Below, in pieces: positions 43,066 to 63,359 of a DNA stretch of 64,000 nt. Position numbers and translations under genes: made by a program. This DNA comes from an uncultured bacterium. GTDB lineage: Bacteria > Omnitrophota > Omnitrophia > Omnitrophales > Aquincolibacteriaceae. Numbering within the stretch: the first letter of the stretch is position 1; each line of letters starts with the position of its first letter. The notes under the pieces were generated by a model. That model was given only the letters and a program-made list of their open reading frames with translations. It was not told where the DNA came from and made no database searches. The stretch is from assembly GCA_964482725.1 (NCBI GenBank), contig CAYZYT010000002.1, positions 74,437 to 138,436 on the forward strand. Reading direction: 5' to 3'.

Positions 43066-43749
43066 TTAGGCCGTACGCTTTTCCGCGGTCAGCGCCGTAA
43101 GCATTTTAGAAATTGTTTTCGCCCATCCGGAAAAAACGGCCTGCGTGTTCGTGAATTTCTGGTACTTGCCGACCGTCAGCGTCTTCAGACTCTTCTTATC
43201 GCCGGAGCCGGACCTCACTTCGGCAAACTCCATCAGAAGCTGCCCGGTCGCGCCATCGGTGATCTTCCCTTCGACCGCTGTCTGGCCGTCTTTATCAAAA
43301 GGAAGCGGCACAGGCGACAGCACCGAGGCGGCAGTCATTCCGACATTAAACAACCGGTCCGGGGTTTCAATGTTCGTAAGCGCCAGACTGATCACCAGCG
43401 TGTGGCCCGAGGGATCGGAAGAGACCGTAAAGCCGCCAGTTTTCAGCTGAGCCTCGACATCTTCGCGGAATTCCTTGGCCAGATTTTCAAGCTCTCCAGT
43501 ATCGCAGGAGCTCGCATTGTCGAGATGGCTCAGATTGACAGGCGCCACCTTGACGGCCTTATAGCCCGAAAGAGTGGTTCCTTTCGGGACATACTCCTGT
43601 TTGAAATAGGTCCCATCTTGAAGCCCGGCATAATCCTGCAGAAACCCGGAAGGAGTCCCCACGCTCGCCGTCGAGCATCCCGACAAAGACAGGGCGAGTA
43701 ATAACAAGACCCAACAAGAAAAGCCTGCGCGCGCTTCTATTTTCATGAT
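43066..43749 (-). CDS. Hypothetical lipoprotein (signal peptide with lipobox LSGC)
   Basis: MIMKIEARAGFSCWVLLLLALSLSGCSTAS... I recognise no conserved catalytic motif. Confidence 0.55.
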   Translation of the reverse strand: MMKIEARAGFSCWVLLLLALSLSGCSTASVGTPSGFLQDYAGLQDGTYFKQEYVPKGTTLSGYKAVKVAPVNLSHLDNASSCDTGELENLAKEFREDVEAQLKTGGFTVSSDPSGHTLVISLALTNIETPDRLFNVGMTAASVLSPVPLPFDKDGQTAVEGKITDGATGQLLMEFAEVRSGSGDKKSLKTLTVGKYQKFTNTQAVFSGWAKTISKMLTALTAEKRTA

Positions 43750-43992: not shown

Positions 43993-44037
43993 GAGAAAAA
44001 AAGGGACAGGCTGAATTTCCTTAAATCAGCCTGCCCC
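43993..44037 (-). terminator. Rho-independent terminator downstream of the giant ORF
   Basis: Minus strand: GGGGCAGGCTGA-tttaaggaaat-TCAGCCTGTCCC followed by TTTTTTT. Confidence 0.55.
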
Positions 44038-44090: not shown

Positions 44091-47000
44091 CTACGCTGAA
44101 GCCTTCACCCTTACCTGAGCCGCTATATAGCTCGTCAGCTCGGCCATTAAGGCTTCTAATCCGCCCAATTTCTCGACAGACACAAAGTGATACCCCATGG
44201 ACCATATCGCCTCATTGAGAAGCTTATCCGCGGCAAGAAGCGCAGAAGCGGTCTGCTTGAGAGGATCCCGAGCCCCGACTACGCTCAAGAGCTGCTTGCG
44301 TGAACCGATCTTCCGGGTCACGACCGAATCCTGACGATCCGTGATAAGCGCCACGGGTTTTCCAACCGGCGCCGCAGCGTTATAAAATTCAGCAAACGCT
44401 CCGACAAACTCGTTCTCGCTTGCGAAAGCCTGCACCTTAAAATTTTGCGGCAGCACGCCTTTCAGGTTCAGGGCCGAAAGTTCTTTTTCAAAAAGAGCGA
44501 CCTCGGAAGCCTCCGCGATCAAAGCCAGCACGACGCCGTCTTTCGGGTTATAAAGCGCGAATGTTACCAGAGGCAGCACGCTCGCAGCATCCGGAACCCC
44601 TTGCCGCTGGTCAATGACCATACGCCCGGTAGAAGCGGTCGCAAAATGGCTGATGATCTCGTTAAACACAGGCCATCTTGTCGCAAAAGCCGGAGGAACC
44701 ACCGGGGCGGCCTGATAATGAACCGTTCCGGCAAAAACCAGCGGCGCGATCTCCGAAGCATACGCCGTCGAACTCGACAGTAGCGGCGAAACCGTATTCG
44801 CCGCCACCCGGATCGCCGTCCCGACCTTCGCTGTCAAACTGGTCGTATCAACTCCGGGGACCAGAGGAATGACGGGCGTCTCATAAGTACGGACTTCAGA
44901 ACGGGCGGTTATTTCGCCTTGCAATAGATCAAGCATCGCGATTTCATCCGCCACTCGCCTCGATTCCTGGTCGATTTTTCTAAGTCGCTCGTCTTGCGAC
45001 GGCATCTCATCGATCCCCAAGGCATTACCGTCCAAACCATTCAAACGGTCGTGCAACTCTGCCAAACGGCTCGCGATCTCAGTTCTTATCTCGTCTAATT
45101 GCAAACGAAGTTTGGCATCCAGCGCCTGCCCAGAAAGGAATTTACCGATAACCTGGCCTGACAACGACTCCCAACGCGATCTCAATCCGTCCGCACGCTT
45201 GGAACGTTCCTTTTCAAGGTTCTCAAGCGCTTGAAAACGGTCAGCGTAAAGTCTCCTGACTGGCGACGTAGCACTGGATCGTACACCAAAAAAACTGTCC
45301 TTGGGTAAGCCTGGCAGGAACCCTTTCAGACGAAACCATGCGGCATTGACTTCTTCCGGGATTGTAAATGCTTTCAGTTCCTCCGGCGCTATTTCCCCGA
45401 TGCGTTCGATATAAAGTACCGTTACTGGATAGGAAAGAGCACTCCCCCCTAAAATTTTTCTCACACGTTCTAGTGAGGCAAGGACTTCTTCCGTGGTCGT
45501 AAACGACTTTAGTCTCTCAGTCTCCTGAATCCGGCTGGCGTAAAGCGCCTCAACCGGTTCAGAGAGAGCGATGCCAGTTGAAACTCCTGCCACGCGGACC
45601 CATGAGGCATAAACTTTTTCGGTGGTAGTGAGTGACTTTAATTCTTTCGGCGCAATCTTTACGATGCGGTCAGCGTAAAGTTTTTCGACCGAACTAAAAA
45701 CATAGGACGCTTCCAAACCCCAATCTTCTCTAAAAATTCCGTGTACGCGGGCCCCGGAAGCAAGAATTTCTTCCAAGGTCGTGAGCTGAGGGAGAACTTT
45801 CTTGATCAATCCCGAGACATCGGTTGCCACGGTTTCCCAACCCCTCTCAACTGTCCAATGCTGCCCATCCATCGAATGCCACTTTAAACGAGCAGCCTTC
45901 ATCACTTCCTGCACTGCCTGATAAGGCTCAGACAATTCAGCGCGTATTGCCAATACCGCATCCACTTGAGCAGTACCGGGTACTCCAGCGGCAGATCGAT
46001 CCAGACGAACTTCGGAGCGGTTGCCAGGACCTATCCCCTCCCAATAGCCTCTATCTTTGTCATCATCTGAACTGCTCGGGCTGGCCTCCGCAGCTTGGCG
46101 TTCTCTTTCGAGCCGCTCAGCCGCTTCACGCGCAAGCTGTTCCTTATAACTAGTTAACGCTTCGCTTGAGCGCGGATCACCGATCTTCACTAGCGCCGCC
46201 GCAACGGCATCGCTAATGGAACGGTCTTTTAATGATTCCACCAACGCAGGGACAGCATTGACATCTTTGGTGTCACCAAGCGCTGTGACTGCAGCGCGAC
46301 GAACATCTGGATACTCATTATTAAGCTGCTTACCAAGCTCCGACAAGGCGTTGATCGCTCGAAGCGCTGAAATAGCAACCGCACGGCTCTCCTTGTCCTC
46401 GAGAGTTAAGGCCTTAACAATTTCGGGAATAGCTTTGCCAAGTTCCTCTTGAGCATTGAGATCAACAAGCGCAGCGATAGCGGCTAAACGCACATCCACT
46501 TCCGCATCATTGAATGCAGTCACAATCCCCGGAATCGATTTATGACCGCGGAGTGCGCTAACAGCCGCCAAGCGGACAACCTTGGCGGTATCATGCAAAG
46601 CAATGTTCAAAGCCGGAACGATACGCGGATCGTTGAGCTCGCCGAGAGCTCTAACAGCAACCACTCGACGGTCCGCACCGCCCTGATTATTAACGATAGG
46701 AACCCCGAGGAACGTACCATCCCACCACTTGGGCTGGAGATTCGACAGCGCCTTCTGGAATTGCTTTTCATCAGCACGCGTCTCATTAATAACAAGAGGA
46801 TAAGAAATATCCGAAGACGAACGAGAATCCCTAGCCTCTTGTTCTTCTGATGCTCTCATATATTCGGCTCTGTCATATTGGGCCCCCTCACCACCTAATA
46901 AACCGAGGAATAGACCCGAACCTGAAATCAGAGAAGGTTCTTGAGTGAACGGGACCCCTTCCCAATTCAACCCAAAATAAACCGCCACTGCAGCAACGCC

Positions 47001-50000
47001 AAGCAGCGCTACGGAAGGGAGAAAAGGATAGATTGTTCCTAGCATTAAATTTCTCTTCTGATCTCCCAGTAATTCCGCACGTACGGTGCCGGCCAAAAAG
47101 GCAGTAGACAAGAGACGAGAGACTGGAGACTGGAGGCTAGAAGCTTTGACTGGAGTCTGTAGTCTGTAGTCTGTGGTCTGAGTTCCCCTCACCTCCGCGC
47201 GCTTGGCGATGCCGGTTTTAAGAACAGAAGCTCCTACTGCCGCGGTTCCGCTGGGAGACACGACGCGAATGAGCTGGCCATAAGTAACCAGTTTCGCTAA
47301 ATTTGCATCCGAGAATTCCCTGGTAAATTCACCGTAAGACCGGTTTCCGTTCGCCGGACCCGAGTACCAGGGAGCAACGCCTTCGGACCAACCTTCCCGT
47401 CCTTCCGCATAACCTCTCGCGGCGATATAACTAAGAATGAACGAATTCATCGCCGAAGCGCTGGATCGGGCCGCAAGAAAAGAGGCTTCCTCAGCAGACG
47501 GAACCGCTGGCTCGGAAGAACCGGAACCATTGCCGTCGGACGTTACTGCCGGAGAATCCGTCGGCTGGGATTCCTCCGCATCATTATCACTGCTCCCACC
47601 CTGCTCACAACCGGCGAGACCCATCACGGCTGCGGCGCCGAAAAGCATTAAAGCGCGCCTTACGCCGCGGTTAACGGTTAACGATGAACGGTTAACGCCG
47701 AGTTTCTCGTTCCCCGTTCCCCGTTCCACGGAACTGTCTGTTGTCTGTAGTCTGTAGTCTGTAGTCTGTTTTGAACGCAGTTCGGCCCTTGACGCCCTAT
47801 GCGACGCAGCGCGCGGAGGCTCATAATTGACCGTCAGCACATTCTGGACCACGCTCTTGTTAAGAGTGATGCCGTCCTTCGCAAGGCCAAGCATCCTGGA
47901 AAAAGCTCGGAAGGGGTCCTTGTTTTTTGAAAGCTGCTTGATCGCCTTGATATTGTGATCCGCCAATCCCTGCAAAATTCTGTTATAAACACCCGCATAC
48001 TTCGTGTCCGGCTCCACGCGATCCGCCGCCACAAAAAAGTTGATAATGTTCACATCGTGCCCTGCCAGGTACAGCATATAAAGAAGCCGGACCACGCTCC
48101 GGGGATCAGTAGCCTTCAGCTTCCGAAAATTGAAGATGGCATTCCGGAAATTCACGGTTTCCATAAAATGCGTGAAGCCGTCGAGATCTCCCTGCCGCTT
48201 AATATCGTTCAATTCACTAAGGACCTGCGCCACTTCGTGAGCTTTTTTCGGATCGGTCGTCGCGAGGTGCTTGATCTTTTCTTCCGTCGCGCGAAGGAGG
48301 TTCGGATCGGAATATTCTTCCCAGGCATGTTCCACAGAGATAGCTTCTTTTCCATTCCCCATAAAGGCGTCCACGAGGCGCACCACGGGCCAATACTTTT
48401 CAATATTAACAAAATAGGAGGATTTGGAAAGTTCCTGCATGAACGCGAAATTCTTGATATGGATGTCAGTGGCAACCCGCACGTTGCGGGAAAGCACATA
48501 GGTCGCTGACTGCAACGCCGCGATCTTGAAATACCGGTACCGGTTGCTAAGACGACCATTGTCGAATACAAACGCCTGCTGGCCGTTGCTTGTCGTCCGT
48601 TCGATCTTGAGCCCCAAAGTCTTCATTTCCTTCACGATGTCCGCAAAAGGCTTTTTAGTGAGTTGAGAAATCGACCGGTAAGAACCCAGCTGTTTGCTGG
48701 AGAACATGACCTCGACGGCCTCCTTACTCAGAGGTGCCGCGCCTGAAGCCGCCGTAAAATTGATCCGGTGAATGTCTTTAAACTCGTCAGCTTTTCGGGC
48801 TTGCTCAACCGCCTGGCTCAGGAAGAAAAGCAGGCGCACAAGGGCTCCCGGCTCCAGAGACTGGAGAAAGAAGATCGCGTAATCCAGGGTCCGCGCTTCC
48901 TCAGCTTTACTGTAAAAATCCCGGAAGTTTTTGTACTCCTTAGGCGATTGATCTTCCAGTTTTTTGAGCTCGGCCTGAACCTCGTCATAGACAGCCTTAA
49001 AATAGGAGGACTGACGGTTGGAGGAAAACTTCCTCATCCGCCATTCGAAGAAGCCTTTCTCGAAATTGGCGATAAAGTTGTCGTCCGTGAGAACGTTGAT
49101 AAAAAAATGCAGTTTATCCACGGACATGGGCTCGCCTTTTTGGGTCGCGAGCACATCCAGCGAATTTAAAAAAGCAAGCGTCCGCAGATAACGGGTCTGG
49201 CCGGCATCCGGAAGACCGGCAAGCTGTTCTTTAAGAGAGGTCAGCAGGTTGTAGGTCGTCCTCTCCCCATATTCAACCGTGCCAAGCTCCACATGGAATT
49301 TGACCAGCCAGAAGACTTCTTTCGCATCTTCCGCAGGATACCCCATGGTTTCAAAAATCTGCTGTTCGCGGATCGCGGCAGCACCGATATCTTCGTGAAA
49401 GTTGGCTTTTTTGCCGATCCCGATATCGTGAAAAAGCACCGCCAGATAAAAGAGCACCCTTCGTTGGGCTTCTTTCGCTTTGTCGCCGCCGGTCCCATAC
49501 CGGATGATCTCCTGGAAAGCGTTGCGATAAAGCTCAAACTGCTCCCGGGTGAACTTGATCCCCTGTTTCTTTTTATTAAATTCATCAAACTGCCCTTTCT
49601 CGATCATTTCCAGATACCCGACCAACTCGAGCGTATGCTCCGAGACGCTGGTGTCCTCGTATTTGGTGAATACATTCTTGAGAATCCGGTTGCCGCTGAC
49701 GTCTTTCTTGGGAATCCCGCGCCCGAAGCGAGGGAACCAGGCGGCCATAGTGCCGTTATCAAAAAGACGTTCCAGGCGGTTGACGAGAGTCCCCGGCCCT
49801 TCGAAATCGAGCGCTTCCCGGAGTTTTTCCGGCACTTCCTTGCGCGCAAAATCCGGATGACTGCGATCAATATAGATCTTCTCCATCTCGCTTTCCTTCT
49901 GCTCCACAGGGTCGATCCCCTGCTCTTTTTGGGCGGAAGGCCCCTCATTTTGCTGCTCTTCCACGCTCTTCCGCTGTTTAAACATGTTATCAACGGACTC

Positions 50001-53000
50001 CCGGAGCGATGTCGGGGAACCCTCCCCGAAATGCAGGGTCGAAAAATTCCGTTGTAGGGTCACAAGGCTGTAAACAAGATCCTTCTCCTCGTCATTGAAC
50101 AGATTCGAGAACACCTTGAGGAATTGAGGGAGGATCTTCCACGAATCGGTCGCCTCATCGTTCTGAAAGAGCCGGGCATAATGCTGGAGAAACGCGGTCA
50201 ACCAGAGGATCTTCTTAAGAGGCTGCGATTTCTTATCGGTGTAGTCATTGGTCTCGACAACGCCATAGGCATCGATCAACTTCCGGACAGACTCCGTGTG
50301 CAGCTTCCCGGGCTGGATATCCATCGCCCGCCTTCCGTCGAAGAACTCCTGGATCTTCCGGCTGTCCTCTCGACGCGAGCTGTAAGCTTCCAGATGGCTC
50401 AGGATGTCGTACGTCGTTTTCAGCTGATCGTACCGGGAGGATGTCGTCACAGTCGCTTCGGGAACAAAGGCCAGCTCACTGAGGAGCGTGACATCGTTCA
50501 GCGCTCTCCAGAATCCGTCCAGATTCTCCTTCGCGCTGAGCCATTGAGCGACAAAAGTGCCCCGTTTGTCGGCCGGCAAATTCTTGTGAAAAAGATTCAC
50601 GGCATTTTCAAGTTTGAGGGTCAATTCCTTCCGCCTCGTACTATCGGAATCCATGGCATCGTCATACGCAAGCGCTTTCACAAAAGCATGCGTTGCATTC
50701 TTATAGTCACCGATGCTCAGGTAATGATCCCCCATCGCTCCAAAAAGCTCGATCAGAGCTTCCATGTCCACCACCGGCGCCTGGACTTTCCCGTAAAGAG
50801 TTCCGACATATTCCCGAAGCGCCTTGAGGGATTCTTTGGGATCCAGATGATCCTTACTGTATTTTTCGATCAATATCCTGACCGACGGATGGAAAACGGC
50901 GTTCTTCTCCATCAGAGGAAGATAGTCTTTTCTCATGGTTTCGAAGGTACCGTTCTGCCCCACCATGTAATCCAGCACGTTCATCAACACAAAAACCTGC
51001 TCCGTCAGGAAGAGCTCTTCGGACACACCCTTCCCTTTAGTCGGCCGTAAAGAAAGAAATGCCTGGAGAGCTCCCTGATAGAGCAATCCCCGGGTAAACA
51101 ACCCGGCTCCGGCAACCGCTCCATCACTGGCCAGCTTTCCGGCCCCCAACACTGATTCCGCGAGAACCATCGCTTCGCCCGCCGGATCATATCCGCCCGC
51201 AACCCACAAAGGATCGGCTTTTGCGGCAACATTGTTGGTCATATTGATATTGCGGCCAAACCGGATGGCTTTGATCTTCCCCGGCCCCTGGCCCTGGGAG
51301 AAATACATATCCCGTACGAGAAGGTTCTCCGAGCTGATCCGGGAGAAAGCAGTTTGAAAGATCTTTGTTTTTTGTTCTTTTTCTTCAATGCTTCCGGAAA
51401 ATCTAGCCCCCTCAAGATCCGCGACCGTCTTCGCCGAACGGATCTCGCCTAAAAGCTCCGTATGAAAATCCGGCGTCTTGCCGGGCAACAGGACACCATT
51501 CAAAACCCACGGCAAGCTCACAAGGTTGCCGAAAGTATCCGCCCCGGCCTTCTTCTCCTCCGCGCGAACCTCCGCACGCTTGGCGATGCCTGTTTTAAGG
51601 ACAGAAGCTCCTACCGCTGCGGTTCCGCTGGGAGACACGACGCGAATGAGCTGGCCATAAGTAACCAGTTTCGCTAAATTTGCATCCGAGAATTCCCTGG
51701 TAAATTCACCGTAAGACCGGTTTCCGTTCGCCGGACCCGAGTACCAGGGAGCAACGCCTTCGGACCAACCTTCCCGTCCTTCCGCATAACCTCTCGCGGC
51801 GATATAACTAAGAATGAACGAATTCATCGCCGAAGCGCTGGATCGGGCCGCAAGAAAAGAGGCTTCCTCAGCAGACGGAACCGCTGGCTCGGAAGAACCG
51901 GAACCATTGCCGTCGGACGTTACTGCCGGAGAATCCGTCGGCTGGGATTCCTCCGCATCATTATCACTGCTCCCACCCTGCTCACAACCGGCGAGACCCA
52001 TCACGGCTGCGGCGCCGAAAAGCATTAAAGCGCGCCTTACGCCGCGGTTAACGGTTAACGATGAACGGTTAACGCCGAGTTTCTCGTTCCCCGTTCCCCG
52101 TTCCACGGAACTGTCTGTTGTCTGTAGTCTGTAGTCTGTAGTCTGAGTTCCCTGCACTTCGGAACGTTTTGCGATGCTTGTTTGCAGAAGCTCTTGCTTG
52201 AATGATTTCCACCAGGCGCCTTGGAAATCGTTGTCGATGGACTGAAGCTTTTTGATGGATTCGACCGCGATCCCATACCGGTCGTCAGACGTATTGAGCG
52301 TATCGCCGAACGAGACAAACAAACGGGCGAGGTCCCAAAGAAAGGCTCCCGGGCCCAGAAGAGAGGGAATTGCATCAAGCTCTTCTGCCGTGAGTTTTTG
52401 AGCGATCTCCTGCTGGTATCCGCTCAGAAGGGCTTTGAGATTCTCCCGGTCATAAGCTCTTACCCTCAACCGGCTGAATCCTGCCGCCGAGGAAAAAACA
52501 TTTTTAAAATCTTCGATGCGGGCCTGCCCCTCACGGCTGCGTTCCCAATCCAGCAACGCTTTGACATCGCTACCGCTCTCATTCCACAGGACATTCCCCA
52601 TCTTGACATCCCCGTGAACGGCCACGGAGGGCAAGCTGTGATATTGCTCTAAAGACAATTTTGTTTTCAGGACTTCGATCTCGGCCAGAATAAAATCGGC
52701 ATGCTCGCGGAACAGTTTTTCGCCCCTCGAATTTCGCCCGGGGTTCTGCTCCAAGGTGTTTTTCAGCGCCCGGAGATCCCCTTCCGCCGTCGTGATATCG
52801 ATCGCCAAGCGCTCGTGTTTTTCGCCCTCCGGGGTGAATCCCGAAAGCGCATTGTGCAGCTGCGCTATGACTTTCCCGAGCTGCTCAAAATGACGGGGCT
52901 GAGCATCCTCATAGGCGATCGTTCTTCCCCCTGGGATGAACTGCTCCACGTAGTAATACAGACCTCCGGCCTCCACAAGGTATTCACCCTTCCGGTTTTT

Positions 53001-56000
53001 CAGGATTCCGGGCACGCGAACGCCTTGTTCGTGCGCTCTGACGGCTATGGAAATCACGAATTTGGCTTTTTTCTCATTATCCGAACCGTATTTCAAAACA
53101 AATTGCCCTGTGGGCGATGTGATCAGCAGGGGCTCCCGCATCAGTGTGCCACCGGGAAGCTTTTTGATTTCTAACTGCTGGGGCGCTGTGACACCCAGGT
53201 CATAGTTTTGAAGCATCGTATCGATCAGCGAATCCGTAGTGACAGGAGCGCTCTGACCTTGCCACCGCTGATAATTTTTGATCACCGATGACGGCTGACG
53301 CCAAAGAGGAACGGTGGGACTCGTGGTAACATTCGCAGCCGTCTCCCGCACTTCGGAGCGGATCGTAATCGCATCGCCGATCTCATGGCTCAACACCCCT
53401 TTATCTGCCAGGATCTTTAACCCGGCTTGAACCAATTTCTCAAAAACCAGAATATCGACAGCAGACTTTACCTCAGCAAACAAGGGGACATCCTCGGTCC
53501 CACCCGTCCGAGAAAGAATGGAGAACTCCCTCAAGCTGAGGTCGGCATTCGCATAACTCAGCGGCTCTTTTCTCTCGACCCCCTCACGCTCAAATCGCTG
53601 GCGAATACGTTTCTCCACGACGCCATGCCACATCCCGCTGATCTGCTCCCATTGAATCAATGGCTGTCCCGATTCTTTCTTTTCAACATACTCGTATGGA
53701 AGCAGCTTTGAAAAACTCAGCATCAGTTGCTCTTCCTGTTCCAGAGTCAGCTTCTCCAACCGCTGCTTCAACTGCGCCAAAGCCGTCGCATCCATATCGG
53801 AGATCTTCTGGACTTCAGGCCATGTGATCAAAGAGCGGCCTTCCACCTCAACACCCTCCGATACGGCATACAGCAAGGCGGCTTGATTGATGACATTAAT
53901 AAAAGTCGAGAATAAAGTGATGTCTTTATCCGCCAGAAAACCGTTCTTATTCTTTTCCTTGGAGATCGGAGTATCCACAATATCGGGTTGGCCGTTGACG
54001 GTCACATAGCCACCTCCGGCTTGCCCCAAGTTACGCCAATTTCCAATACCTACATGGGCAAGACTGTGCTTTGCCATGAAACCAAGCACCCGGTCAAATT
54101 GTTTTTGTCCCAATTGCGCGGTCGGACCGTCCGCTGAACGAAGGATCGAGTAAACTTCGCCCCGCATCAATCCTTGAATGAAGGCGAACATAAAACCCAT
54201 GCCATCCCCATGCCCCAGCACGCTCTCGGGTCTTTCCACGATTTGACCCTCTTTGACGACCCAGACGCGGCTAGTATTGAAGGCGATAGCATCCACGGGC
54301 ACTCGGGCAAGGTTCCCGTTGCGGGCGTTGCGCTCGAGGATCTCATAGGTCGCACCAAGGAAAGGCTTCCAGGTCCAGGGGCTAAGCGTATAGCCAAGAC
54401 GGACAGGGCTTCCATTCCCTGCTAATTTGATAAGATTATCCATGGCGAGTTTGACCCCCGTCCCGCCATCCGTATTCTGATTCCCGTACCAGAAAGCAGC
54501 GAGAGCCCGCGGAAGGTCCGTGGGGACATCGTCTGCATTCATCACGCCAGCATCGATCAACGGCTCCAAGGATGAAAACCAGCGAGTTGCCTTCCCCGCC
54601 GCCAGCAGAACTTCCCTGACTCCTCCACGCCCCGCGATATTCCTGCCGGTTTTCTCAAATTCAGCGAGATCGTTCATTTTGCCGTCCGCCACCCGCTGGA
54701 TCACATCTTCCGGGATATTCAGCGAAACAAGCCGCAAAGCGATCTCGTTCAGTTTAAGCGAAGCGGAAAGACCCAGTTGTTTTTGAATGTCCTCCAGAAA
54801 TGCCGAGCGGCTCAAAAGAAGCGCCTTCTTAAATTCCCAATTCAGCGCTGTCTTCAAAAGCAGTGTCACCGAAAGCAAAGCTTCCGCGAAATCGGAAACG
54901 ACCGCATGACTCACGGGCGTGCCGGCGGGAACAATGCCAAGCTCCTTAATGACATTGAGGACCAAAACAGGATCTTTTCTGAAATCATTCTCGAATTTAA
55001 CCAACGCGTTAAACCGAACCACGGGATCTTTTAACGCCTGCTTCGAATATTTTTCGATCAATCCCTCCAACTCATGGACATTGACCCCCCCGACCTTTTC
55101 AGGCAGGACCATTTGATCGGAAGCATCGAGAGTGAGCGGCAAACCCTCGATCAGTCTCTTTAATATCTGACGCGTCAAATATGTCGAGACGATCCTTTCG
55201 GGTGGATAAAGACTCCATACATCCGCGCGAAGGTCCTGCACCTCCAGTGCTCCAGCATCGTTATAACCGATCTGGGCAGTCTTCATCCGCTTCCCAAGAT
55301 TTTCAAAATTCACGGGATTACCGAATTCATTTTCCGTCACCTGACGGATCTCATCCATGCTCGGCTTCTCCAGTTCGTCCCCAATCTTGAACCAAAGCGA
55401 AGTGGTCCGGTCCGCCAGCGGATTCTCCTTAAGTTTCAGATCCGATAAGAACGGGATCGCGATCGCGGTCTGGATCCCTTTAAATATCTGCAAAAGCGCC
55501 AACTGCCGGTCGTGGACCGGCACATTCCGGCTCGTACGCTCCAACGCCTCGGCCGCGTCCAAAAATTTTGAAATATGTTCCAAAACCTCGCTCTTGACCG
55601 TGGGCCACTCCAAAACATTCATCTCCTGCAGCCTCTTCAGATCCGTGTCGAGCAAGGAAGCTCCTGCTTGCGCTGCAATCCGCACTTCCGAGCGGGATTC
55701 TTTGGCGGCCGAAGCCCCTGGTGCTAGCCACAGATCACCTTCACCCGCGCGCTGTCCTTCGCCCTTTGACCGCTGCCCGTTCTTCTGTTCCCCTCTCGCA
55801 TTACGGGCTTCCACCTGCCCGGCCAAAAGAATGATCCTCTCAAAAACCTTCCGGGCGGCAATATTTCGTTCATCTTCGTTACGGGACAAATCCAGTTCTT
55901 TTGCATATCGCGAAAGAATATCCACAAGATCCAGGTCGCCAGCGACATGGTACAGCGCCGATGACTCTTCGCCTTGCGTGCCCACTGTGGTTTGCATGAC

Positions 56001-59000
56001 CGAACCGAATCGGTCCATGATTCTCAGCCGTTCGGCAGGATCTGAAATCTTCCCAAAAGCTTCCCCGCCGAGGAATGCGCCCAACATCTGGAATAAATTG
56101 CCTCTCAGCGAAAAAGTGACCGGACCGGATACACTCTCCTGGGAATCCTCGTACTCACCGTGGTCAATAATATCCACCGCGATCTCAAAGAATTTATCGA
56201 GCACTTGTTTTCGCTCCGCAGAGCTCTTGATCTGACCGTATCCTTTACCGCTCAATAGCGAGTCGAGTGCGTCAAAAACGCGATAGCTGTATTTAGAGCC
56301 ATACCGATGCATGTCGAAGCGCAGTGAAGCGTCATAGCATTTCGCCAGGATCTGTTTTCGTTCTTCGAGCGCGCTTATCCGGCCAAACCCGCTCCCGGCA
56401 AACAATTGACTGAGTGAACCAAGCGCTTGCTGCGCCTCGTATTCCTCGGAAGACGATACGGCGAATCTACTAACAATATTTTCCACCTGCCGCCGCACCT
56501 CGGCTTGCTGGGCCGCATCCGCGATCGCCAGGAACCAGCCGTAATTTTCCAACACCATGCGAACCTCGGAGCGGGCGGCATCAGGAGCCAATTCACCATC
56601 GATCTTCAGAACATGGGTTTTTTGATCTTGATAAGTCCCGGCGAGAACATAACCGTTCCCGAGATCAAGAAGAGAACCGACCTCTCCTCCAAGCCGTTCC
56701 GCGAGGTCGGCGATCCACTCGATCCCCCCCGTAATAGCCCCCGAGCCGTCCTTCACGGTTTTCACAACATAGGTTTTGCCATTCAACCCGACGAGAACAT
56801 AACCATTTCCGAGATCAAGAAGAGAATCGACATCTCCTCCAAGCGGTCCCGCGAAAGTGTAAATCTTCTTAATCCCCGTAATAGCCCCCGAGCCGTCCTT
56901 TTCGGCTTTCAGAATATGGATTCTTGAATCATCCTCAGTTCCGGCGAGAACATAACCGTTCCCGAGATCAAGAAGAGACCAGACATATCCTCCAAGCGGT
57001 TCCTCGCGGGAGGAGAACCTCTCTATCCCCGTAATAGCCCCCGAGCCGTCCTTCACGGTTTTCAAAACATGGGTTTTACTATCCAGAGTCCCGGCGAGAA
57101 CATAACCGTTCCCGAGATCAAGAAGAGACGTGACACGTCCTCCAAGCGGTTCCGCGAGGGAGGAGATCTTTTCGATCCTCGTAATTGACCCCGAGCCGTC
57201 CTTCACGACTTTCAGAACATGGGTTTTTTGATCATCAAAAGTCCCGGCGAGAACATAACCGTTCCCGAGATCAAGAAGAGACCTGACATTTCCTCCAAGC
57301 GGTTCCGCGAGGGAGGAGATCTTTTCGATCCCCGTAATTGCCCCCGAGCCGTCCTTCACGGCTTTCAGAACATGGGTTTTTTGATCATCAAAAGTCCCGG
57401 CGAGAACATAACCGTTCCCGAGATCAAGAAGAGACCTGACATTTCCTCCAAGCGGTTCCGCGAGGGAGGAGATCTTTTCGATCCCCGTAATTGCCCCCGA
57501 GCCGTCCTTCACGGCTTTCAGAACATGGGTTTTTTGATCTTGATAAGTCCCGGCGAGAACATAACCGTTCCCGAGATCAAGAAGAGACAGGACCCCTCCT
57601 CCAAGCGGTTCCGCGAGGGAGGAGATGGACCTGACGCCGTCCACTTTTTGAAAACGCGATTTCGGAATCACGGCCCCGGGCTTTTTTGCGGCTTCCGCCG
57701 CATCCGAAGAGATCATATCCCCAGTGACCATGGCTTCGTTGCGGATCTCGGAGCGGGAGCCAAGCTGACTGGCGGCGAGCACGTGAGATAACAACGAATG
57801 CGCAAAAACCGAAGAGAGCGCCTGGCTGTTAACTTTCTCGGAACGGATCATGTCAAGTATGAGAGCACGGACATTGCGAGCCCAATCCTGGGTCGCAGCG
57901 GCACCGGTCACAGCAACGCGCTCAGCACGGCCGACGAGACCGAGAAGGGCGGGCATTTGGGAGGTTTCAATATCACGGCTTCCGAGGATCGAGCGGAGAT
58001 ACACTTCTCGATCGTTCTTGGAGACTTCATTAATACGGGGAGTGATCTGGACATAAGAGCAATGCTTGGATGCGGCGAGAGCCTTAAGGCCGTCGGCATG
58101 GAATCCGCCGGTCACGATCACGGCGCGTTGCTGCTTTTGCTCGCTCATTTTCGAGAGAGCATTACGAAACATGGCGTTTTCACGGACAATCGCGGTCTCG
58201 TAAAACTCGACCGCATTCGCGAAAACAGACTGGAGACTAGTGACTGGAGACTGAAGCACCTTGTTTTTAGTCTGTGGTCTCTGGTCTGTGGTCTGTAGTC
58301 CCGCCGCAAGCTCGTCGGGAGAAATACGGAAACTCTGAAGCTCAGCATATTCTTTCCTAGTCAATTCAAGACTAAATAGGCGCCTGAGCAAGTAGAGCTT
58401 GCGAGCGGCGGAAAGATACGCTTTCTCATCCGCCGTCTTGGCGAGTGCGGTCTCGATATTGTCTTTCAGCTTGATCGTTTCTTCCTGCAACCCCTTGCCC
58501 TGGAGTTCCTGCATTAGGATCGTCTGCTGGGCATAGAGCGTCCAGTTGGGCCATTGTTTCATTGAGAAATTCTTGGGAAGCTTCGCGAAGGCCATGTCAA
58601 AGGCCCGACGCACGACGGAATATCCGTCTGCGTCGCGGTTAACGGTTAACGATGAACGGTTAACGTTACGTTCAGCGCTGTTTCGTTCCCCGTTTCCCAA
58701 TGATTGTTCGTTCCCCGTTCCCCGTTCCCCGTTCCCCGATGCCGCCTCGAAGGCATGTATAATTTCCTTCGACATTCCAAGCTTCTTAAGCTCAGCAAGA
58801 AAAGAGGCCTGCTCCGCCGCCGCTTTATCCCGGTCAATTTTCGATCCGATCGCCACCAGGCGGTAGTACCGGATAAGGGACGGATACTGGTCCTGATAAA
58901 AGGCGTCCGAGAGGTCGAGCTTGAGGTGCTTCTTACTCCCCTCACCGAGGGCCTTGAGCCAGCCTTCGAAGGAAACGGTTCCCGAACCAAACGCCTCTTC

Positions 59001-59741
59001 CTGGCGGACGAGGTTCAGGAGATCTTTATTCAGCTTCGATGCGTAACGTTTGTCGATCGTGGCCCGCAAAGAGCCCAGGAACTTCTCCGCGGTTTTTTCC
59101 TTCTTCACGACGCTGATAAATGCTTCACGGTCTTTTTTGTACGAATCGAGGTCTTCCACGCCGAACGCCGCCATGCCGGCGGCGCGTTTCGCGGGGAACG
59201 TGGAACGTGGAACGTTTGCGTTAACCGTTTCCCGTTTCCCGTTTCCCGGTAATTGTTCGTTCCCCGTTTCCCGTTCCCCGATTTTTTGATTTATCAAAAA
59301 ATTCTCCGGCCCCGTCAAATACCCTTCCTGCATCAGCTTATCCGTGACCTTCTGATTGAATGCGGGATTCTCGGGAAAAAGTCGGAAGAGTTCCGGCTGG
59401 AGCTTCGCAGCAGCGCCTTCAAGAAGCATTAATTTGACGGATGAATTCTTCTCGATATAACCGAGGAGTTTCTCAATGTTTTTTTCAGCCTGATAATTCC
59501 CGTGCGCAGATTGAATATGAATGAAGGCCGGAGCTTTCGGATCACCCTTAAGGGTATCTGTCACCTGGCCGAGTTCGGCCGGGATCGAGAGCATTCCGGC
59601 GGGCAATGAAGACACCTCCGGATTGAGCGTGGGCACACCCGTGGCAGCGAATGCATTCGGGCTGATCTGGAGGCTGGTAATAAAGAAGGTAAAAACGACG
59701 GTGGAGGCGATTAACTTCATGCTGGGATGGCGTTGGCTCAT
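44091..59741 (-). CDS. Giant open reading frame (5216 codons, single frame, no stop). It is a mosaic: signal peptide; 8 x 51-aa tandem repeats; UDPGP-like nucleotidyltransferase motif; APH/choline-kinase-like kinase; HD domain; TM + HEAT repeats; duplicated lipoprotein-like module. It may be a true giant gene, or several genes bridged by stop-free simple repeats.
   Basis: Uninterrupted frame from ATG 59741 (AAGGA RBS, MKLIASTVVFTFFITSLQISPNAFAA signal) to TAA 44091, followed by a terminator. Recognisable motifs all lie in this one frame: HGDVKMGNVLWNE...LLDWE (APH Brenner motif), VLGHGDGMGF (UDPGP), VLFHDIGIGKK...HEDIGAAA (HD), HEAT/PBS-lyase repeats VRALGELNDPRIVPAL. See the findings for caveats. 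Confidence 0.5.
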   Translation of the reverse strand: MSQRHPSMKLIASTVVFTFFITSLQISPNAFAATGVPTLNPEVSSLPAGMLSIPAELGQVTDTLKGDPKAPAFIHIQSAHGNYQAEKNIEKLLGYIEKNSSVKLMLLEGAAAKLQPELFRLFPENPAFNQKVTDKLMQEGYLTGPENFLINQKIGERETGNEQLPGNGKRETVNANVPRSTFPAKRAAGMAAFGVEDLDSYKKDREAFISVVKKEKTAEKFLGSLRATIDKRYASKLNKDLLNLVRQEEAFGSGTVSFEGWLKALGEGSKKHLKLDLSDAFYQDQYPSLIRYYRLVAIGSKIDRDKAAAEQASFLAELKKLGMSKEIIHAFEAASGNGERGTGNEQSLGNGERNSAERNVNRSSLTVNRDADGYSVVRRAFDMAFAKLPKNFSMKQWPNWTLYAQQTILMQELQGKGLQEETIKLKDNIETALAKTADEKAYLSAARKLYLLRRLFSLELTRKEYAELQSFRISPDELAAGLQTTDQRPQTKNKVLQSPVTSLQSVFANAVEFYETAIVRENAMFRNALSKMSEQKQQRAVIVTGGFHADGLKALAASKHCSYVQITPRINEVSKNDREVYLRSILGSRDIETSQMPALLGLVGRAERVAVTGAAATQDWARNVRALILDMIRSEKVNSQALSSVFAHSLLSHVLAASQLGSRSEIRNEAMVTGDMISSDAAEAAKKPGAVIPKSRFQKVDGVRSISSLAEPLGGGVLSLLDLGNGYVLAGTYQDQKTHVLKAVKDGSGAITGIEKISSLAEPLGGNVRSLLDLGNGYVLAGTFDDQKTHVLKAVKDGSGAITGIEKISSLAEPLGGNVRSLLDLGNGYVLAGTFDDQKTHVLKVVKDGSGSITRIEKISSLAEPLGGRVTSLLDLGNGYVLAGTLDSKTHVLKTVKDGSGAITGIERFSSREEPLGGYVWSLLDLGNGYVLAGTEDDSRIHILKAEKDGSGAITGIKKIYTFAGPLGGDVDSLLDLGNGYVLVGLNGKTYVVKTVKDGSGAITGGIEWIADLAERLGGEVGSLLDLGNGYVLAGTYQDQKTHVLKIDGELAPDAARSEVRMVLENYGWFLAIADAAQQAEVRRQVENIVSRFAVSSSEEYEAQQALGSLSQLFAGSGFGRISALEERKQILAKCYDASLRFDMHRYGSKYSYRVFDALDSLLSGKGYGQIKSSAERKQVLDKFFEIAVDIIDHGEYEDSQESVSGPVTFSLRGNLFQMLGAFLGGEAFGKISDPAERLRIMDRFGSVMQTTVGTQGEESSALYHVAGDLDLVDILSRYAKELDLSRNEDERNIAARKVFERIILLAGQVEARNARGEQKNGQRSKGEGQRAGEGDLWLAPGASAAKESRSEVRIAAQAGASLLDTDLKRLQEMNVLEWPTVKSEVLEHISKFLDAAEALERTSRNVPVHDRQLALLQIFKGIQTAIAIPFLSDLKLKENPLADRTTSLWFKIGDELEKPSMDEIRQVTENEFGNPVNFENLGKRMKTAQIGYNDAGALEVQDLRADVWSLYPPERIVSTYLTRQILKRLIEGLPLTLDASDQMVLPEKVGGVNVHELEGLIEKYSKQALKDPVVRFNALVKFENDFRKDPVLVLNVIKELGIVPAGTPVSHAVVSDFAEALLSVTLLLKTALNWEFKKALLLSRSAFLEDIQKQLGLSASLKLNEIALRLVSLNIPEDVIQRVADGKMNDLAEFEKTGRNIAGRGGVREVLLAAGKATRWFSSLEPLIDAGVMNADDVPTDLPRALAAFWYGNQNTDGGTGVKLAMDNLIKLAGNGSPVRLGYTLSPWTWKPFLGATYEILERNARNGNLARVPVDAIAFNTSRVWVVKEGQIVERPESVLGHGDGMGFMFAFIQGLMRGEVYSILRSADGPTAQLGQKQFDRVLGFMAKHSLAHVGIGNWRNLGQAGGGYVTVNGQPDIVDTPISKEKNKNGFLADKDITLFSTFINVINQAALLYAVSEGVEVEGRSLITWPEVQKISDMDATALAQLKQRLEKLTLEQEEQLMLSFSKLLPYEYVEKKESGQPLIQWEQISGMWHGVVEKRIRQRFEREGVERKEPLSYANADLSLREFSILSRTGGTEDVPLFAEVKSAVDILVFEKLVQAGLKILADKGVLSHEIGDAITIRSEVRETAANVTTSPTVPLWRQPSSVIKNYQRWQGQSAPVTTDSLIDTMLQNYDLGVTAPQQLEIKKLPGGTLMREPLLITSPTGQFVLKYGSDNEKKAKFVISIAVRAHEQGVRVPGILKNRKGEYLVEAGGLYYYVEQFIPGGRTIAYEDAQPRHFEQLGKVIAQLHNALSGFTPEGEKHERLAIDITTAEGDLRALKNTLEQNPGRNSRGEKLFREHADFILAEIEVLKTKLSLEQYHSLPSVAVHGDVKMGNVLWNESGSDVKALLDWERSREGQARIEDFKNVFSSAAGFSRLRVRAYDRENLKALLSGYQQEIAQKLTAEELDAIPSLLGPGAFLWDLARLFVSFGDTLNTSDDRYGIAVESIKKLQSIDNDFQGAWWKSFKQELLQTSIAKRSEVQGTQTTDYRLQTTDSSVERGTGNEKLGVNRSSLTVNRGVRRALMLFGAAAVMGLAGCEQGGSSDNDAEESQPTDSPAVTSDGNGSGSSEPAVPSAEEASFLAARSSASAMNSFILSYIAARGYAEGREGWSEGVAPWYSGPANGNRSYGEFTREFSDANLAKLVTYGQLIRVVSPSGTAAVGASVLKTGIAKRAEVRAEEKKAGADTFGNLVSLPWVLNGVLLPGKTPDFHTELLGEIRSAKTVADLEGARFSGSIEEKEQKTKIFQTAFSRISSENLLVRDMYFSQGQGPGKIKAIRFGRNINMTNNVAAKADPLWVAGGYDPAGEAMVLAESVLGAGKLASDGAVAGAGLFTRGLLYQGALQAFLSLRPTKGKGVSEELFLTEQVFVLMNVLDYMVGQNGTFETMRKDYLPLMEKNAVFHPSVRILIEKYSKDHLDPKESLKALREYVGTLYGKVQAPVVDMEALIELFGAMGDHYLSIGDYKNATHAFVKALAYDDAMDSDSTRRKELTLKLENAVNLFHKNLPADKRGTFVAQWLSAKENLDGFWRALNDVTLLSELAFVPEATVTTSSRYDQLKTTYDILSHLEAYSSRREDSRKIQEFFDGRRAMDIQPGKLHTESVRKLIDAYGVVETNDYTDKKSQPLKKILWLTAFLQHYARLFQNDEATDSWKILPQFLKVFSNLFNDEEKDLVYSLVTLQRNFSTLHFGEGSPTSLRESVDNMFKQRKSVEEQQNEGPSAQKEQGIDPVEQKESEMEKIYIDRSHPDFARKEVPEKLREALDFEGPGTLVNRLERLFDNGTMAAWFPRFGRGIPKKDVSGNRILKNVFTKYEDTSVSEHTLELVGYLEMIEKGQFDEFNKKKQGIKFTREQFELYRNAFQEIIRYGTGGDKAKEAQRRVLFYLAVLFHDIGIGKKANFHEDIGAAAIREQQIFETMGYPAEDAKEVFWLVKFHVELGTVEYGERTTYNLLTSLKEQLAGLPDAGQTRYLRTLAFLNSLDVLATQKGEPMSVDKLHFFINVLTDDNFIANFEKGFFEWRMRKFSSNRQSSYFKAVYDEVQAELKKLEDQSPKEYKNFRDFYSKAEEARTLDYAIFFLQSLEPGALVRLLFFLSQAVEQARKADEFKDIHRINFTAASGAAPLSKEAVEVMFSSKQLGSYRSISQLTKKPFADIVKEMKTLGLKIERTTSNGQQAFVFDNGRLSNRYRYFKIAALQSATYVLSRNVRVATDIHIKNFAFMQELSKSSYFVNIEKYWPVVRLVDAFMGNGKEAISVEHAWEEYSDPNLLRATEEKIKHLATTDPKKAHEVAQVLSELNDIKRQGDLDGFTHFMETVNFRNAIFNFRKLKATDPRSVVRLLYMLYLAGHDVNIINFFVAADRVEPDTKYAGVYNRILQGLADHNIKAIKQLSKNKDPFRAFSRMLGLAKDGITLNKSVVQNVLTVNYEPPRAASHRASRAELRSKQTTDYRLQTTDSSVERGTGNEKLGVNRSSLTVNRGVRRALMLFGAAAVMGLAGCEQGGSSDNDAEESQPTDSPAVTSDGNGSGSSEPAVPSAEEASFLAARSSASAMNSFILSYIAARGYAEGREGWSEGVAPWYSGPANGNRSYGEFTREFSDANLAKLVTYGQLIRVVSPSGTAAVGASVLKTGIAKRAEVRGTQTTDYRLQTPVKASSLQSPVSRLLSTAFLAGTVRAELLGDQKRNLMLGTIYPFLPSVALLGVAAVAVYFGLNWEGVPFTQEPSLISGSGLFLGLLGGEGAQYDRAEYMRASEEQEARDSRSSSDISYPLVINETRADEKQFQKALSNLQPKWWDGTFLGVPIVNNQGGADRRVVAVRALGELNDPRIVPALNIALHDTAKVVRLAAVSALRGHKSIPGIVTAFNDAEVDVRLAAIAALVDLNAQEELGKAIPEIVKALTLEDKESRAVAISALRAINALSELGKQLNNEYPDVRRAAVTALGDTKDVNAVPALVESLKDRSISDAVAAALVKIGDPRSSEALTSYKEQLAREAAERLERERQAAEASPSSSDDDKDRGYWEGIGPGNRSEVRLDRSAAGVPGTAQVDAVLAIRAELSEPYQAVQEVMKAARLKWHSMDGQHWTVERGWETVATDVSGLIKKVLPQLTTLEEILASGARVHGIFREDWGLEASYVFSSVEKLYADRIVKIAPKELKSLTTTEKVYASWVRVAGVSTGIALSEPVEALYASRIQETERLKSFTTTEEVLASLERVRKILGGSALSYPVTVLYIERIGEIAPEELKAFTIPEEVNAAWFRLKGFLPGLPKDSFFGVRSSATSPVRRLYADRFQALENLEKERSKRADGLRSRWESLSGQVIGKFLSGQALDAKLRLQLDEIRTEIASRLAELHDRLNGLDGNALGIDEMPSQDERLRKIDQESRRVADEIAMLDLLQGEITARSEVRTYETPVIPLVPGVDTTSLTAKVGTAIRVAANTVSPLLSSSTAYASEIAPLVFAGTVHYQAAPVVPPAFATRWPVFNEIISHFATASTGRMVIDQRQGVPDAASVLPLVTFALYNPKDGVVLALIAEASEVALFEKELSALNLKGVLPQNFKVQAFASENEFVGAFAEFYNAAAPVGKPVALITDRQDSVVTRKIGSRKQLLSVVGARDPLKQTASALLAADKLLNEAIWSMGYHFVSVEKLGGLEALMAELTSYIAAQVRVKASA
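47190..47768. repeat. Copy B of the 578-bp segmental duplication, ending in [GGTTAAC]n [CGTTCCC]n [TCTGTAG]n heptamer tracts
   Basis: See copy A; the heptamer blocks lie at 47643-47768. Confidence 0.85.
51569..52145. repeat. Copy A of a near-exact 578-bp segmental duplication inside the giant ORF (copy B at 47190-47768)
   Basis: The plus-strand shadow ORFs 47437-47757 and 51814-52134 are identical over 106 aa. Flanks diverge after a few mismatches at the 5' edge. Offset about 4378 bp. Confidence 0.85.
56570..57650. repeat. Tandem array of eight 153-bp (51-aa) repeats inside the giant ORF (SSLAEPLGGxVxSLLDLGNGYVLAGTxxDxKTHVLKxVKDGSGAITGIEKI)
   Basis: The unit ...GCGAGAACATAACCGTTCCCGAGATCAAGAAGAGA... 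recurs every 153 bp (for example at 57400 and 57553) with high nucleotide identity. Confidence 0.75.
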
Positions 59742-62598: not shown

Positions 62599-63359
62599 AT
62601 GACCGGGATGCCCTCATAAGACTGGAACGTCCCCCGAAGTCCCGAGATGCCCTCCTCGGTTTGGAGAAGCGCTTTGACCGCATGATTGCCGAGCGCCACG
62701 ATCACCTTGGGTTGAATGATCTTGAGCTGCTCTTTGAGGTAAGGCCGGCAGTGAGCGACTTCTCCCGGCGCAGGCGGACGATTATTCGGCGGCCGGCATT
62801 TGAGGACGTTGCAAATAAAGACCTGATCACGGGTCCAGCCCATGGCTTCAATGATCTTCGTGAGGAGCTGACCGGCGCGGCCGACAAAAGGAAGTCCCTG
62901 CTCGTCTTCATCGGCGCCCGGGGCTTCCCCCACAAAAACAAGCTCGGCCTGGAGATTGCCGTCGCCAAAGACGACCTTGTTGCGGGTCTTCGCGAGTTCG
63001 GCGCAGAGTTTGCATTTCAGGACTTTGGCTCGAAGTGATTCGATCCCAGGATTGCTTTCCGCCGAAGCCTTGTCATTCCCGCATGCTTTACGCGGGAATC
63101 CACTTTTTGTTGCTGGACCCCCGACTAAAACATTCGGGGGTGACACAATTTGTCGACTTGAGGATTGCATCACGGAACTCGAAGACTTGAATGTTGCTTT
63201 GTCATCCTGAGCCGATTTTCGGCGAAGGATCTCGCTTTGAGATTCTTCGCCCTTCGGGCTCAGAATGACGGGAGCGAAAGATTTCTTCGGCACATACACT
63301 TCTTCAATGCCGTCTTCTTTCAAGGCTTTCAGGAATAAAAGAGACTCGCGCTTCGGCAT
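62493..63359 (-). CDS. Uracil-DNA glycosylase, family 4; about 105 N-terminal codons are repeat-derived (R2 + R1), so the true start may be internal
   Basis: Core motifs C(K/R)LC...VFGEGN-like ([21 protein letters not shown]) and [23 protein letters not shown], then HPAYLLR. The N-terminal 105 aa has no UDG homology and spans two repeat elements. Confidence 0.75.
63071..63145. repeat. R1 palindromic element, copy 4 (within the 5' part of the UDG ORF)
   Basis: TGTCATTCCCGCATGCTTTACGCGGGAATCCACTTTTTGTTGCTGGACCCCCGACTAAAACATTCGGGGGTGACA. Confidence 0.8.
63200..63269. repeat. R2 element (inverted dimer) in the 5' part of the UDG ORF
   Basis: TGTCATCCTGAGCCGATTTTCGGCGAAGGATCTCGCTTTGAGATTCTTCGCCCTTCGGGCTCAGAATGAC. 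The arms are reverse complements of each other. Confidence 0.7.

Follow-up and report, generated by a model that had tools for sequence, protein, structure and literature searches.

How does a single reading frame come to carry the same lipoprotein-like segment twice, and how could secretion signals buried thousands of residues inside that frame be put to use? These questions are raised by a 64,000-nt stretch of DNA from an uncultured bacterium of the Omnitrophota family Aquincolibacteriaceae (assembly GCA_964482725.1, contig CAYZYT010000002.1, positions 74,437 to 138,436 of the forward strand), here called the window and numbered from its first base. Within it, a giant open reading frame (ORF) on the minus strand holds two nearly identical copies of a 578-bp segment, which a preliminary description of the sequence had pointed out. 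The copies are two of the modules into which the gene is divided by a conserved pentapeptide. Taken as a whole, the locus is probably best explained as a duplicated cassette in a polyprotein-like giant gene, the copies being mosaic and the pentapeptide (R-S-E-x-R, RSExR below) a putative processing site.

A duplicated cassette in a modular giant gene

The two copies (A and B; Table 1) form an ungapped 578-bp match at 99.1% identity with an offset of 4377 bp, and similarity stops sharply on both sides. A match of 578 bp at 99% within 64 kb is beyond chance. Base-by-base alignment of the copies confirms the repeat as first described, with coordinates that were right to within 1-2 bases, and places the 5 mismatches (47199, 47214, 47223, 47238, and 47241) together at the edge with the lower coordinates. 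The motif R-[SA]-E-[VIL]-[RQ] occurs ten times in the giant ORF and divides it into 11 modules (M1 to M11) of 196-1,263 aa each, and the repeat is exactly one complete module, junction to junction: M6 (copy A) and M8 (copy B) have 196 codons each and, in a codon-level comparison, encode proteins that are identical from codon 3 onward. The repeat is very probably genuine, a single cassette of a modular giant gene that has been duplicated.

Each copy comprises, in order, heptamer arrays, a lipoprotein-type signal, a Ser/Gly/Asp-rich linker, a domain of ~85 aa, and a tail that ends in RAEVR; identity begins, on the 5' side, at the start of the first heptamer array and ends, on the 3' side, within the RAEVR codons. 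The peptide quoted in the preliminary description, including RGVRRALMLFGAAAVMGLAGC, is encoded by both copies in the frame of the minus-strand giant ORF, and its lipoprotein-like character is upheld. The signal in both copies reads RGVRR-ALMLFGAAAVMG-LAGC, comprising a positive n-region, a hydrophobic core, and a lipobox of the pattern [LVI][ASTVI][GAS]C that is also kept in a 55%-identical homologue. Both signals are internal, at ORF residues ~2,566-2,586 and 4,025-4,045, and not at the ORF N-terminus.

The flanks of the copies are less alike than had been proposed. Both copies end in RAEVR and begin in an (ACAGACT)n array, but the junctions upstream of them differ (RSEVQ-GTQ before copy A versus RAELR-SKQ before copy B), and a further heptamer array follows copy B but not copy A. 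The suggestion that the gene grows by modular duplication at its junction repeats agrees with the edges of the repeat, which are RAEVR/heptamer junctions, and with a cassette content that varies between orthologous genes. RAEVR does bound the copies; what had been missed is that it belongs to a peptide motif found throughout the family.

History of the two copies

Codons 3-177 of M6 and M8 are identical in the codon-level comparison, which amounts to 527 bp without a difference, and 8 nucleotide changes affect 7 of the final 19 codons. All 8 are synonymous, including those in 3 of the 5 RAEVR codons (CGT/CGC, GTT/GTG, and CGC/AGG), which leave the peptide the same. If differences were spread evenly, the probability that all 8 would fall within the last 57 of 588 nt is ∼8e-9. 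Because the differences are confined to the last 19 codons, beside a 527-bp identical tract, the copies are paralogues with a mosaic history. Synonymous sites make up only ∼29% of sites in the 19-codon tail, which carries ∼0.45 differences per synonymous site but codes for the same amino acids in both copies. That all 8 tail changes are synonymous suggests purifying selection on the frame, including RAEVR, in both copies.

We consider it probable that an older pair, or a pair with older tails, was recently homogenised by gene conversion, or had one copy partly replaced through recombination initiated in the heptamer array, with the RAEVR tail remaining under purifying selection. The "very recent duplication" first proposed is too simple for the pair, in which synonymous-only tail differences indicate an older pair or older tails, with 527 bp homogenised or replaced more recently. 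The arrangement resembles gene conversion between paralogous cassettes, in which a long identical tract ends sharply beside a diverged segment; it differs in that two copies are available here without an outgroup. Junction segments also appear to have some history of their own, because the stretch that runs from the M8 tail through the junction into the M9 array shares 79% identity with the corresponding stretch at the end of M5 (tail, junction, and array, 52112-52189). Two points tell against the history proposed here. The 527-bp identity may be inflated by consensus polishing of the repeat, and no close relative that could show the ancestral copy number turned up when metagenome contigs were scanned for the lipoprotein module and for M7.

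A simpler history, which we regard as rather unlikely, is that the cassette was duplicated once, very recently, for instance through unequal crossing-over at the heptamer arrays, that gene conversion played no part afterwards, and that the differing tails belong to similar junction segments which already existed outside the duplicated tract. The 5' edge of identity, which lies exactly at the heptamer array, is consistent with such an event, as is the occurrence of junction tails apart from the lipoprotein module: an IAKR[SA]EV[RQ] tail followed by GTQ and a heptamer array also ends M5 (the segment with 79% DNA identity to the M8 tail), and AIAKRSEVR is similar in the related locus L004. However, both tails continue the module sequence (SPSGTAAVGASVLKTGIAK) and have the same amino acids over 19 codons, which exceeds the IAKR motif shared with M5. 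A single duplication would also require prior homologous tails at both sites, and in that respect is not easily told apart from an older pair that underwent conversion.

Assembly duplication, which the preliminary description had listed among its explanations, fares worse, and we judge it very unlikely that the layout is an artefact in which a repeat was collapsed, duplicated, or mis-joined, or in which two strain variants were stitched in series. The complete identity over 527 bp would fit an artefact, the repeat-unique-repeat layout is one that assemblers may mis-resolve, and metagenome scans gave no close relative confirming the layout. Against this, the copies differ by 8 synonymous changes, their flanks are unlike, and the frame is kept across all three new junctions, with a proper motif at M5/M6, M6/M7, M7/M8, and M8/M9. 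The 4377-bp spacing is moreover a multiple of 3, and a mis-join rarely keeps a 15.6-kb ORF.

A peptide motif at module boundaries

The motif R-[SA]-E-x-[RQ] is present at all 10 module boundaries of the giant ORF, and its codons vary among these ten sites. In a sample of 11 giant ORFs (32 kilo-amino acids), it occurs 49 times compared with 2.6 expected from shuffles, an enrichment of ∼19-fold, and the other five frames of the window contain it three times in all, with a maximum of one per frame. Arg is encoded by both CGN and AGR, Ser by both TCN and AGC, and Glu by both GAA and GAG among 63 strict sites in related giant ORFs, in which V, I, M, L, A, or T occupies position 4, the preceding residue is usually small, and the following residue is not conserved. 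Because every codon family is used, the sites indicate that the motif is selected as a peptide and not as DNA or RNA. The one of these three that was checked, an RSEVR at 43208-43222 downstream of the giant ORF, was considered as the end of a stand-alone protein, but is out of frame with the lipoprotein gene there and is a chance match.

Hydrophobic segments are concentrated behind the motif: 16 of the 74 in giant ORFs lie ≤60 aa after one, compared with 6.1 expected, and none of 2000 permutations reaches 16. The window ORF itself has an N-terminal signal-like hydrophobic segment and further ones in M6, M8, and M9, as judged by a hydropathy scan and not by a dedicated predictor.

Relatives of the lipoprotein-like module came from a full HMMER search, a word-indexed homologue search with the mature module having found nothing. 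One of them is a 55%-identical copy within another giant protein (P0010, 4,097 aa, GCA_037139435.1), which contains 16 RSExR motifs and in which the lipobox is conserved. Two lipobox signals in this protein begin 0-5 residues past a motif (RRSEIR followed by RIVSIIAVAAVMGLAGC, and RRSELR followed by GASIKRAIMLTVVAAVFGLAGC), and the second lipobox module ends in NRSEVR. The first lipoprotein-like module of P0010 has no Met before its hydrophobic core and the second has one. The C-terminal part of the module, named the WYSG domain after its best-conserved stretch, is found in 1-6 copies in eight other proteins. It is predicted to be helical by a confident AlphaFold model (predicted local distance difference test, pLDDT, 90.3), and had no significant match among solved structures in the PDB.

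Orthologues with conserved ends and different middles

Metagenome-assembled genomes (MAGs) of Omnitrophota/Omnitrophica account for all five of the closest genomic loci and for every named protein match. M11 has five homologues in Candidatus Omnitrophota MAGs, each ending a long ORF (four of them >2,300 aa and three with several RSExR motifs), and one metagenomic homologue, also preceded by RSEVR. The orthologues in L002 and L006 are ∼2,300 aa long, and their M1 and M11 enclose different middle modules, M2-M8 and M10 being without counterpart there. M1-like domains also head other, neighbouring giant ORFs. Homology to M1 ends in a short variable tail terminated by the motif (in the window, L002, L006, P0002, and L007), with unrelated sequence beyond, and in most relatives examined the homology of M1 and of M11 ends near a motif and unrelated modules follow. 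These comparisons indicate that the motif marks homology breakpoints between orthologues.

In L007 (GCA_040767405.1), an in-frame TAG at 11948-11950, two codons after RAELR, ends the M1 homologue, and the same is seen in L008 and L009. Downstream of the L007 TAG a giant ORF runs in the same frame with no further stop (3,333 aa within the locus; 3,707 aa according to the gene caller). The length of the ORF downstream of this TAG varies by assembly (3,707 versus 2,291 aa).

Two further observations concern M11 and the ends of the gene. In L004, the first ∼32 residues of M11 are repeated ∼3 kb upstream of the complete M11 (3639-3734 and 6666-7427), and this extra head has RSEMR before it and RSEVR with ∼950 aa of other modules after it, as if cassettes had been inserted. 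An RSEVR within M11 of L003 was considered as an insertion scar and rejected, being a few point changes from PKAEVV. Two distant, GC-rich giant proteins (P0013 and P0018) begin with an M1-like domain, contain a WYSG domain, and resemble M11 at their C-terminal end (...AQ...A.A).

One chain or many proteins

Bacterial lipoproteins are processed by Lgt, LspA, and Lnt. The window cassette resembles them in its RGVRR n-region, a hydrophobic core of ∼14 residues, L-A-G-C, and then a Ser/Gly/Asp-rich linker, but differs in that its signals lie 2,570 and 4,030 residues into the ORF. Being so far from the ORF N-terminus, they would be canonical only after cleavage or internal initiation, or as internal signal-anchors.

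We tentatively propose, from sequence features, that the gene works like a polyprotein in which RSExR is the cut site. We predict that translation runs through all junctions as one chain, because no stop interrupts the frame across the 10 junctions and 15.6 kb of the giant ORF, and the same is seen in several genomes. The chain would then be cut at RSExR so that each module obtains its own N-terminus, and the freed signals of M6 and M8 would be usable as in ordinary lipoproteins, leading to export, lipidation at Cys, and cleavage by signal peptidase II. Features of a polyprotein present in the giant ORF are a single uninterrupted frame, protein-sized unrelated units (196-1,263 aa), and a conserved boundary peptide. 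Cutting would also resolve a topology problem, since in an uncut chain the two identical signals would be placed in opposite orientations and the kinase- and HD-type modules would be exported. In a polyprotein each product would go to its own compartment, which may explain why complete lipoprotein or secretion signals lie directly behind the motif.

The polyproteins of viruses provide a model, as in the picornaviruses and in the flaviviruses, the latter relying on host signal peptidase to cleave behind internal signal sequences. They share with the window gene one ORF, protein-sized units, a short boundary peptide, and internal signals directly after boundaries. Unlike them, the window gene is cellular and chromosomal, no protease domain was identified in it, and its cleavage is inferred. 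To our knowledge the motif resembles no known viral cleavage site.

Several observations weigh against cleavage at the motif. No protease was identified, M1 giving only a sub-threshold ChaN/Tiki hint and negative PDB searches. Five residues are short for a specific protease site, and the surrounding residues are not conserved. The motif can arise where cleavage would harm, because an RSEVR lies inside the conserved M11 domain of L003. In the window, 35 heptamer-encoded residues lie between the motif and the lipoprotein signal, although these look like a later insertion because the P0010 signals begin directly after the motif. P0013 and P0018, which share the conserved ends, show no RSExR on reading of their sequences, so that this architecture, with its two bookend domains, is wider than the motif. 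Finally, published analyses treat such giants as single membrane-anchored proteins.

The last of these points leads to an alternative that we find doubtful: one uncut multi-domain membrane protein, in which the lipobox segments are only transmembrane (TM) helices and RSExR is a linker (structural or inherited) or a binding motif, unconnected with cleavage. The missing protease and the motif-free distant relatives with the same bookends are readily accommodated by such a protein. However, three separate modules conserve a full lipobox, which a plain TM helix would not need; hydrophobic segments are concentrated just behind the motif; and the L007 module ends naturally at a stop two codons past it. 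An uncut protein would also orient identical signals oppositely and place ATP-dependent kinase-type and HD-type modules outside the cell.

It is also conceivable, but quite unlikely, that the modules are translated separately from internal starts, as an operon without stops, with M6 and M8 starting at the ATG of MLFG behind an upstream AAGG, the start suggested in the preliminary description. The ATG with its weak AAGG, 10-11 nt upstream of the hydrophobic core of the signal, and a +1-frame TAA 13 nt before the ATG have the look of an operon-type stop-start arrangement, and M3 begins with Met directly after RSEVR. Yet ribosomes from upstream would still read through, there being no in-frame stop, and internal starts give no reason for one stop-free frame across 10 junctions in several genomes, nor for a conserved peptide at module ends. 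Most module starts, including that of the first lipoprotein module of P0010, lack an initial Met.

That the motif acts at the DNA or RNA level, as a cassette recombination site, an RNA-processing site, or a Shine-Dalgarno-like sequence whose translation is incidental, is extremely improbable: some instances contain GGAGGT or GAGGT and orthologues differ in cassette content, but third codon positions are free, both Arg and both Ser codon families occur, 3 of the 5 RAEVR codons differ between the copies with the peptide constant, and junction RNA across the heptamers has no significant structure compared with shuffles (z −0.61) and no Rfam match. Codon degeneracy led us to reject a Shine-Dalgarno or recombination site. 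The gene likewise differs from an integron-like cassette array, its junctions being without conserved nucleotide sequence or structure and inspection of the neighbouring ORFs, though not a dedicated search, having revealed no integrase.

Heptamer arrays as possible switches

Slippage by a single unit (7 bp) in a junction array would change the frame, which would then run into a stop within 2-71 codons. The junction arrays may accordingly be read as a phase-variation switch in which slippage truncates the chain. Comparable arrangements are the short tandemly repeated repetitive (STRR) heptanucleotide sequences of heterocystous cyanobacteria and simple-sequence contingency loci. The window arrays resemble these in being tandem runs of 3-5 heptamers, often paired and partly complementary, in which slippage of a unit shifts the frame. 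They differ in belonging to another phylum and in sitting in the coding frame, where they are translated; no length variation was observed.

Heptamers are not confined to the junctions. M1 contains paired in-frame heptamer arrays inserted at 58227-58300, 58630-58738, and 59179-59280, one of which (58631-58665) is 97% identical to the array of the duplicated cassette. At comparable points, M1 homologues in other genomes carry low-complexity inserts and in-frame heptamer arrays built from different units (L006 4240-4298; L010 10435-11719).

Other modules and features of the window

Table 1. Features of the giant gene, its duplicated cassette, and its 3' end
Feature	Position in window	Strand	Remarks
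Giant ORF	44091-59741	minus	5,216 aa; 11 dissimilar modules M1-M11 split by R-[SA]-E-x-[RQ]
M1	57741-59741	minus	N-terminal Sec-type signal peptide and ∼630-aa conserved domain; N-terminal bookend conserved in orthologues; ends in RSEIR
Junction RSEVQ	52152-52166	minus	End of M5, upstream of copy A
Repeat copy A	51568-52145	minus	Module M6 (51564-52151)
Heptamer arrays, copy A	52045-52145	minus	In frame; (ACAGACT)∼4.7, (GGGAACG)∼2.9, (TTAACCG)∼4.3
Lipoprotein-type signal, copy A	51984-52046	minus	RGVRRALMLFGAAAVMGLAGC; lipobox L-A-G-C; candidate internal ATG (Met of MLFG) inside
WYSG domain	51621-51878 (A), 47244-47501 (B)	minus	∼85 aa, predicted helical
Diverged tail, copy A	51564-51620	minus	...AAVGASVLKTGIAK-RAEVR
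M7	47775-51563	minus	1,263 aa; unique in-frame segment between copies A and B; ends in RAELR
Junction RAELR	47775-47789	minus	End of M7, upstream of copy B
Repeat copy B	47191-47768	minus	Module M8 (47187-47774)
Heptamer arrays, copy B	47668-47769	minus	Set identical to copy A
Lipoprotein-type signal, copy B	47607-47669	minus	Identical to copy A signal
Diverged tail, copy B	47187-47243	minus	Includes RAEVR at 47187-47201
Heptamer arrays at M9 start	47106-47180	minus	Directly after RAEVR of copy B
M11	44094-44888	minus	Conserved C-terminal bookend; 60-78% identical in six other Omnitrophota contigs
Probable intrinsic terminator	43996-44035	minus	Hairpin, then T-run; 56 nt past the giant-ORF stop codon; would end the giant transcription unit

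Pfam and NCBIfam identify M5 as an APH-type kinase and M9 as HEAT repeats behind a membrane segment, and give a weak HD (GlnD-like) match for M7. M2 contains seven tandem repeats of 153 nt (51 aa; 56600-57686) that are 63-88% identical and encode ISSLAEPLGG.V.SLLDLGNGYVLAGT...KTHVLK.VKDGSGAITGIEK; no family match above threshold was found for it, and its repeats could form a propeller-like module. The modules other than M2, M5, M7, and M9 have no match to a known family. Among these, M10 contains three diverged repeats of ∼132 nt (45339-45647) with 45-nt cores that are 64-73% identical. M1 was considered as a Tiki/ChaN-type protease, which is not established: its Pfam match to PF04187 (ChaN/Tiki) is weak and below threshold (E value 0.016-0.0023), its AlphaFold model is poor (pLDDT 47) and unusable for structure search, and PDB searches by sequence and by profile gave no match.

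The hairpin of the probable terminator has a z score of −2.56, with 0 of 200 shuffles folding equally well. Scans for promoters and terminators within the giant ORF were at background level, and no Rfam family was matched in the window. Apart from the giant ORF, the window holds ordinary bacterial housekeeping genes, each ending at a normal stop codon. An 88-nt repeat is present in four copies (60207-60294, 62088-62175, 62382-62469, and 63071-63158) at 75-82% identity, with internal hairpins TCCCGC...GCGGGA and CCCCGA...TCGGGG and ends TGTCAT...ATGACA. It lies in frame within PriA-like and uracil-DNA-glycosylase-like ORFs, where it is translated as ...SPNV.IGDP..K.GFPLK.CGND..., and looks like a small hairpin element tolerated within coding sequence.

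Significance for giant Omnitrophota genes

Giant genes of the Omnitrophota, including a "multi-enzyme" class, have already been described (West-Roberts et al. 2023, bioRxiv 10.1101/2023.11.21.568195; Nielsen & Lui 2026, bioRxiv 10.64898/2026.06.07.730766). According to the earlier preprint, it is not known whether these proteins act as a single chain or undergo cutting, and no points of cleavage have been established (bioRxiv 10.1101/2023.11.21.568195). The later survey, which catalogues proteins of at least 10,000 aa, predicts a signal peptide, TM helices, or both for 94% of long Omnitrophota proteins, at a TM density comparable to that of ordinary proteins, and treats them as single membrane-anchored chains, which puts metabolic enzymes on the outer face of the membrane (Nielsen & Lui 2026, bioRxiv 10.64898/2026.06.07.730766).

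The window gene shares with these multi-enzyme giants its phylum, the tiling of kinase, HD, HEAT, and repeat modules in one ORF, an N-terminal signal peptide with scattered hydrophobic helices, and a content that is highly variable between genomes. It differs in its length of 5,216 aa, below the 10-kAA threshold of the catalogue, and in modules delimited by RSExR with lipoprotein signals behind the motif. The gene is a smaller member of the known giant class, and the duplication is an ordinary event within that class. Neither the 2023 nor the 2026 giant-gene preprint yielded a junction or cleavage motif when its text was searched, and nothing relevant on RSEVR or on Omnitrophota polyproteins emerged from literature searches. 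As far as the searched literature shows, the junction motif with signals behind it is a new feature of giant Omnitrophota genes.

Alone, the duplication is of modest interest, and if the motif were only a linker, what would be left is an intragenic duplication of an ordinary sort, accompanied by gene conversion, in a class of gene already known. It is the context of the duplication that yields a testable prediction on an open question. A junction motif selected as a peptide predicts exact cut sites and new N-termini, making it testable whether these proteins remain one chain or are cut, and the duplicated cassette supplies a control within the genome, 3 of the 5 RAEVR codons differing between copies with the peptide unchanged. 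More speculatively, the giant genes of one Omnitrophota lineage might be bacterial polyproteins, operon-like sets cut at R-S-E-x-R with products sent to their own compartments, in which motif-bounded cassettes are gained, lost, duplicated, and homogenised and heptamers possibly act as switches.

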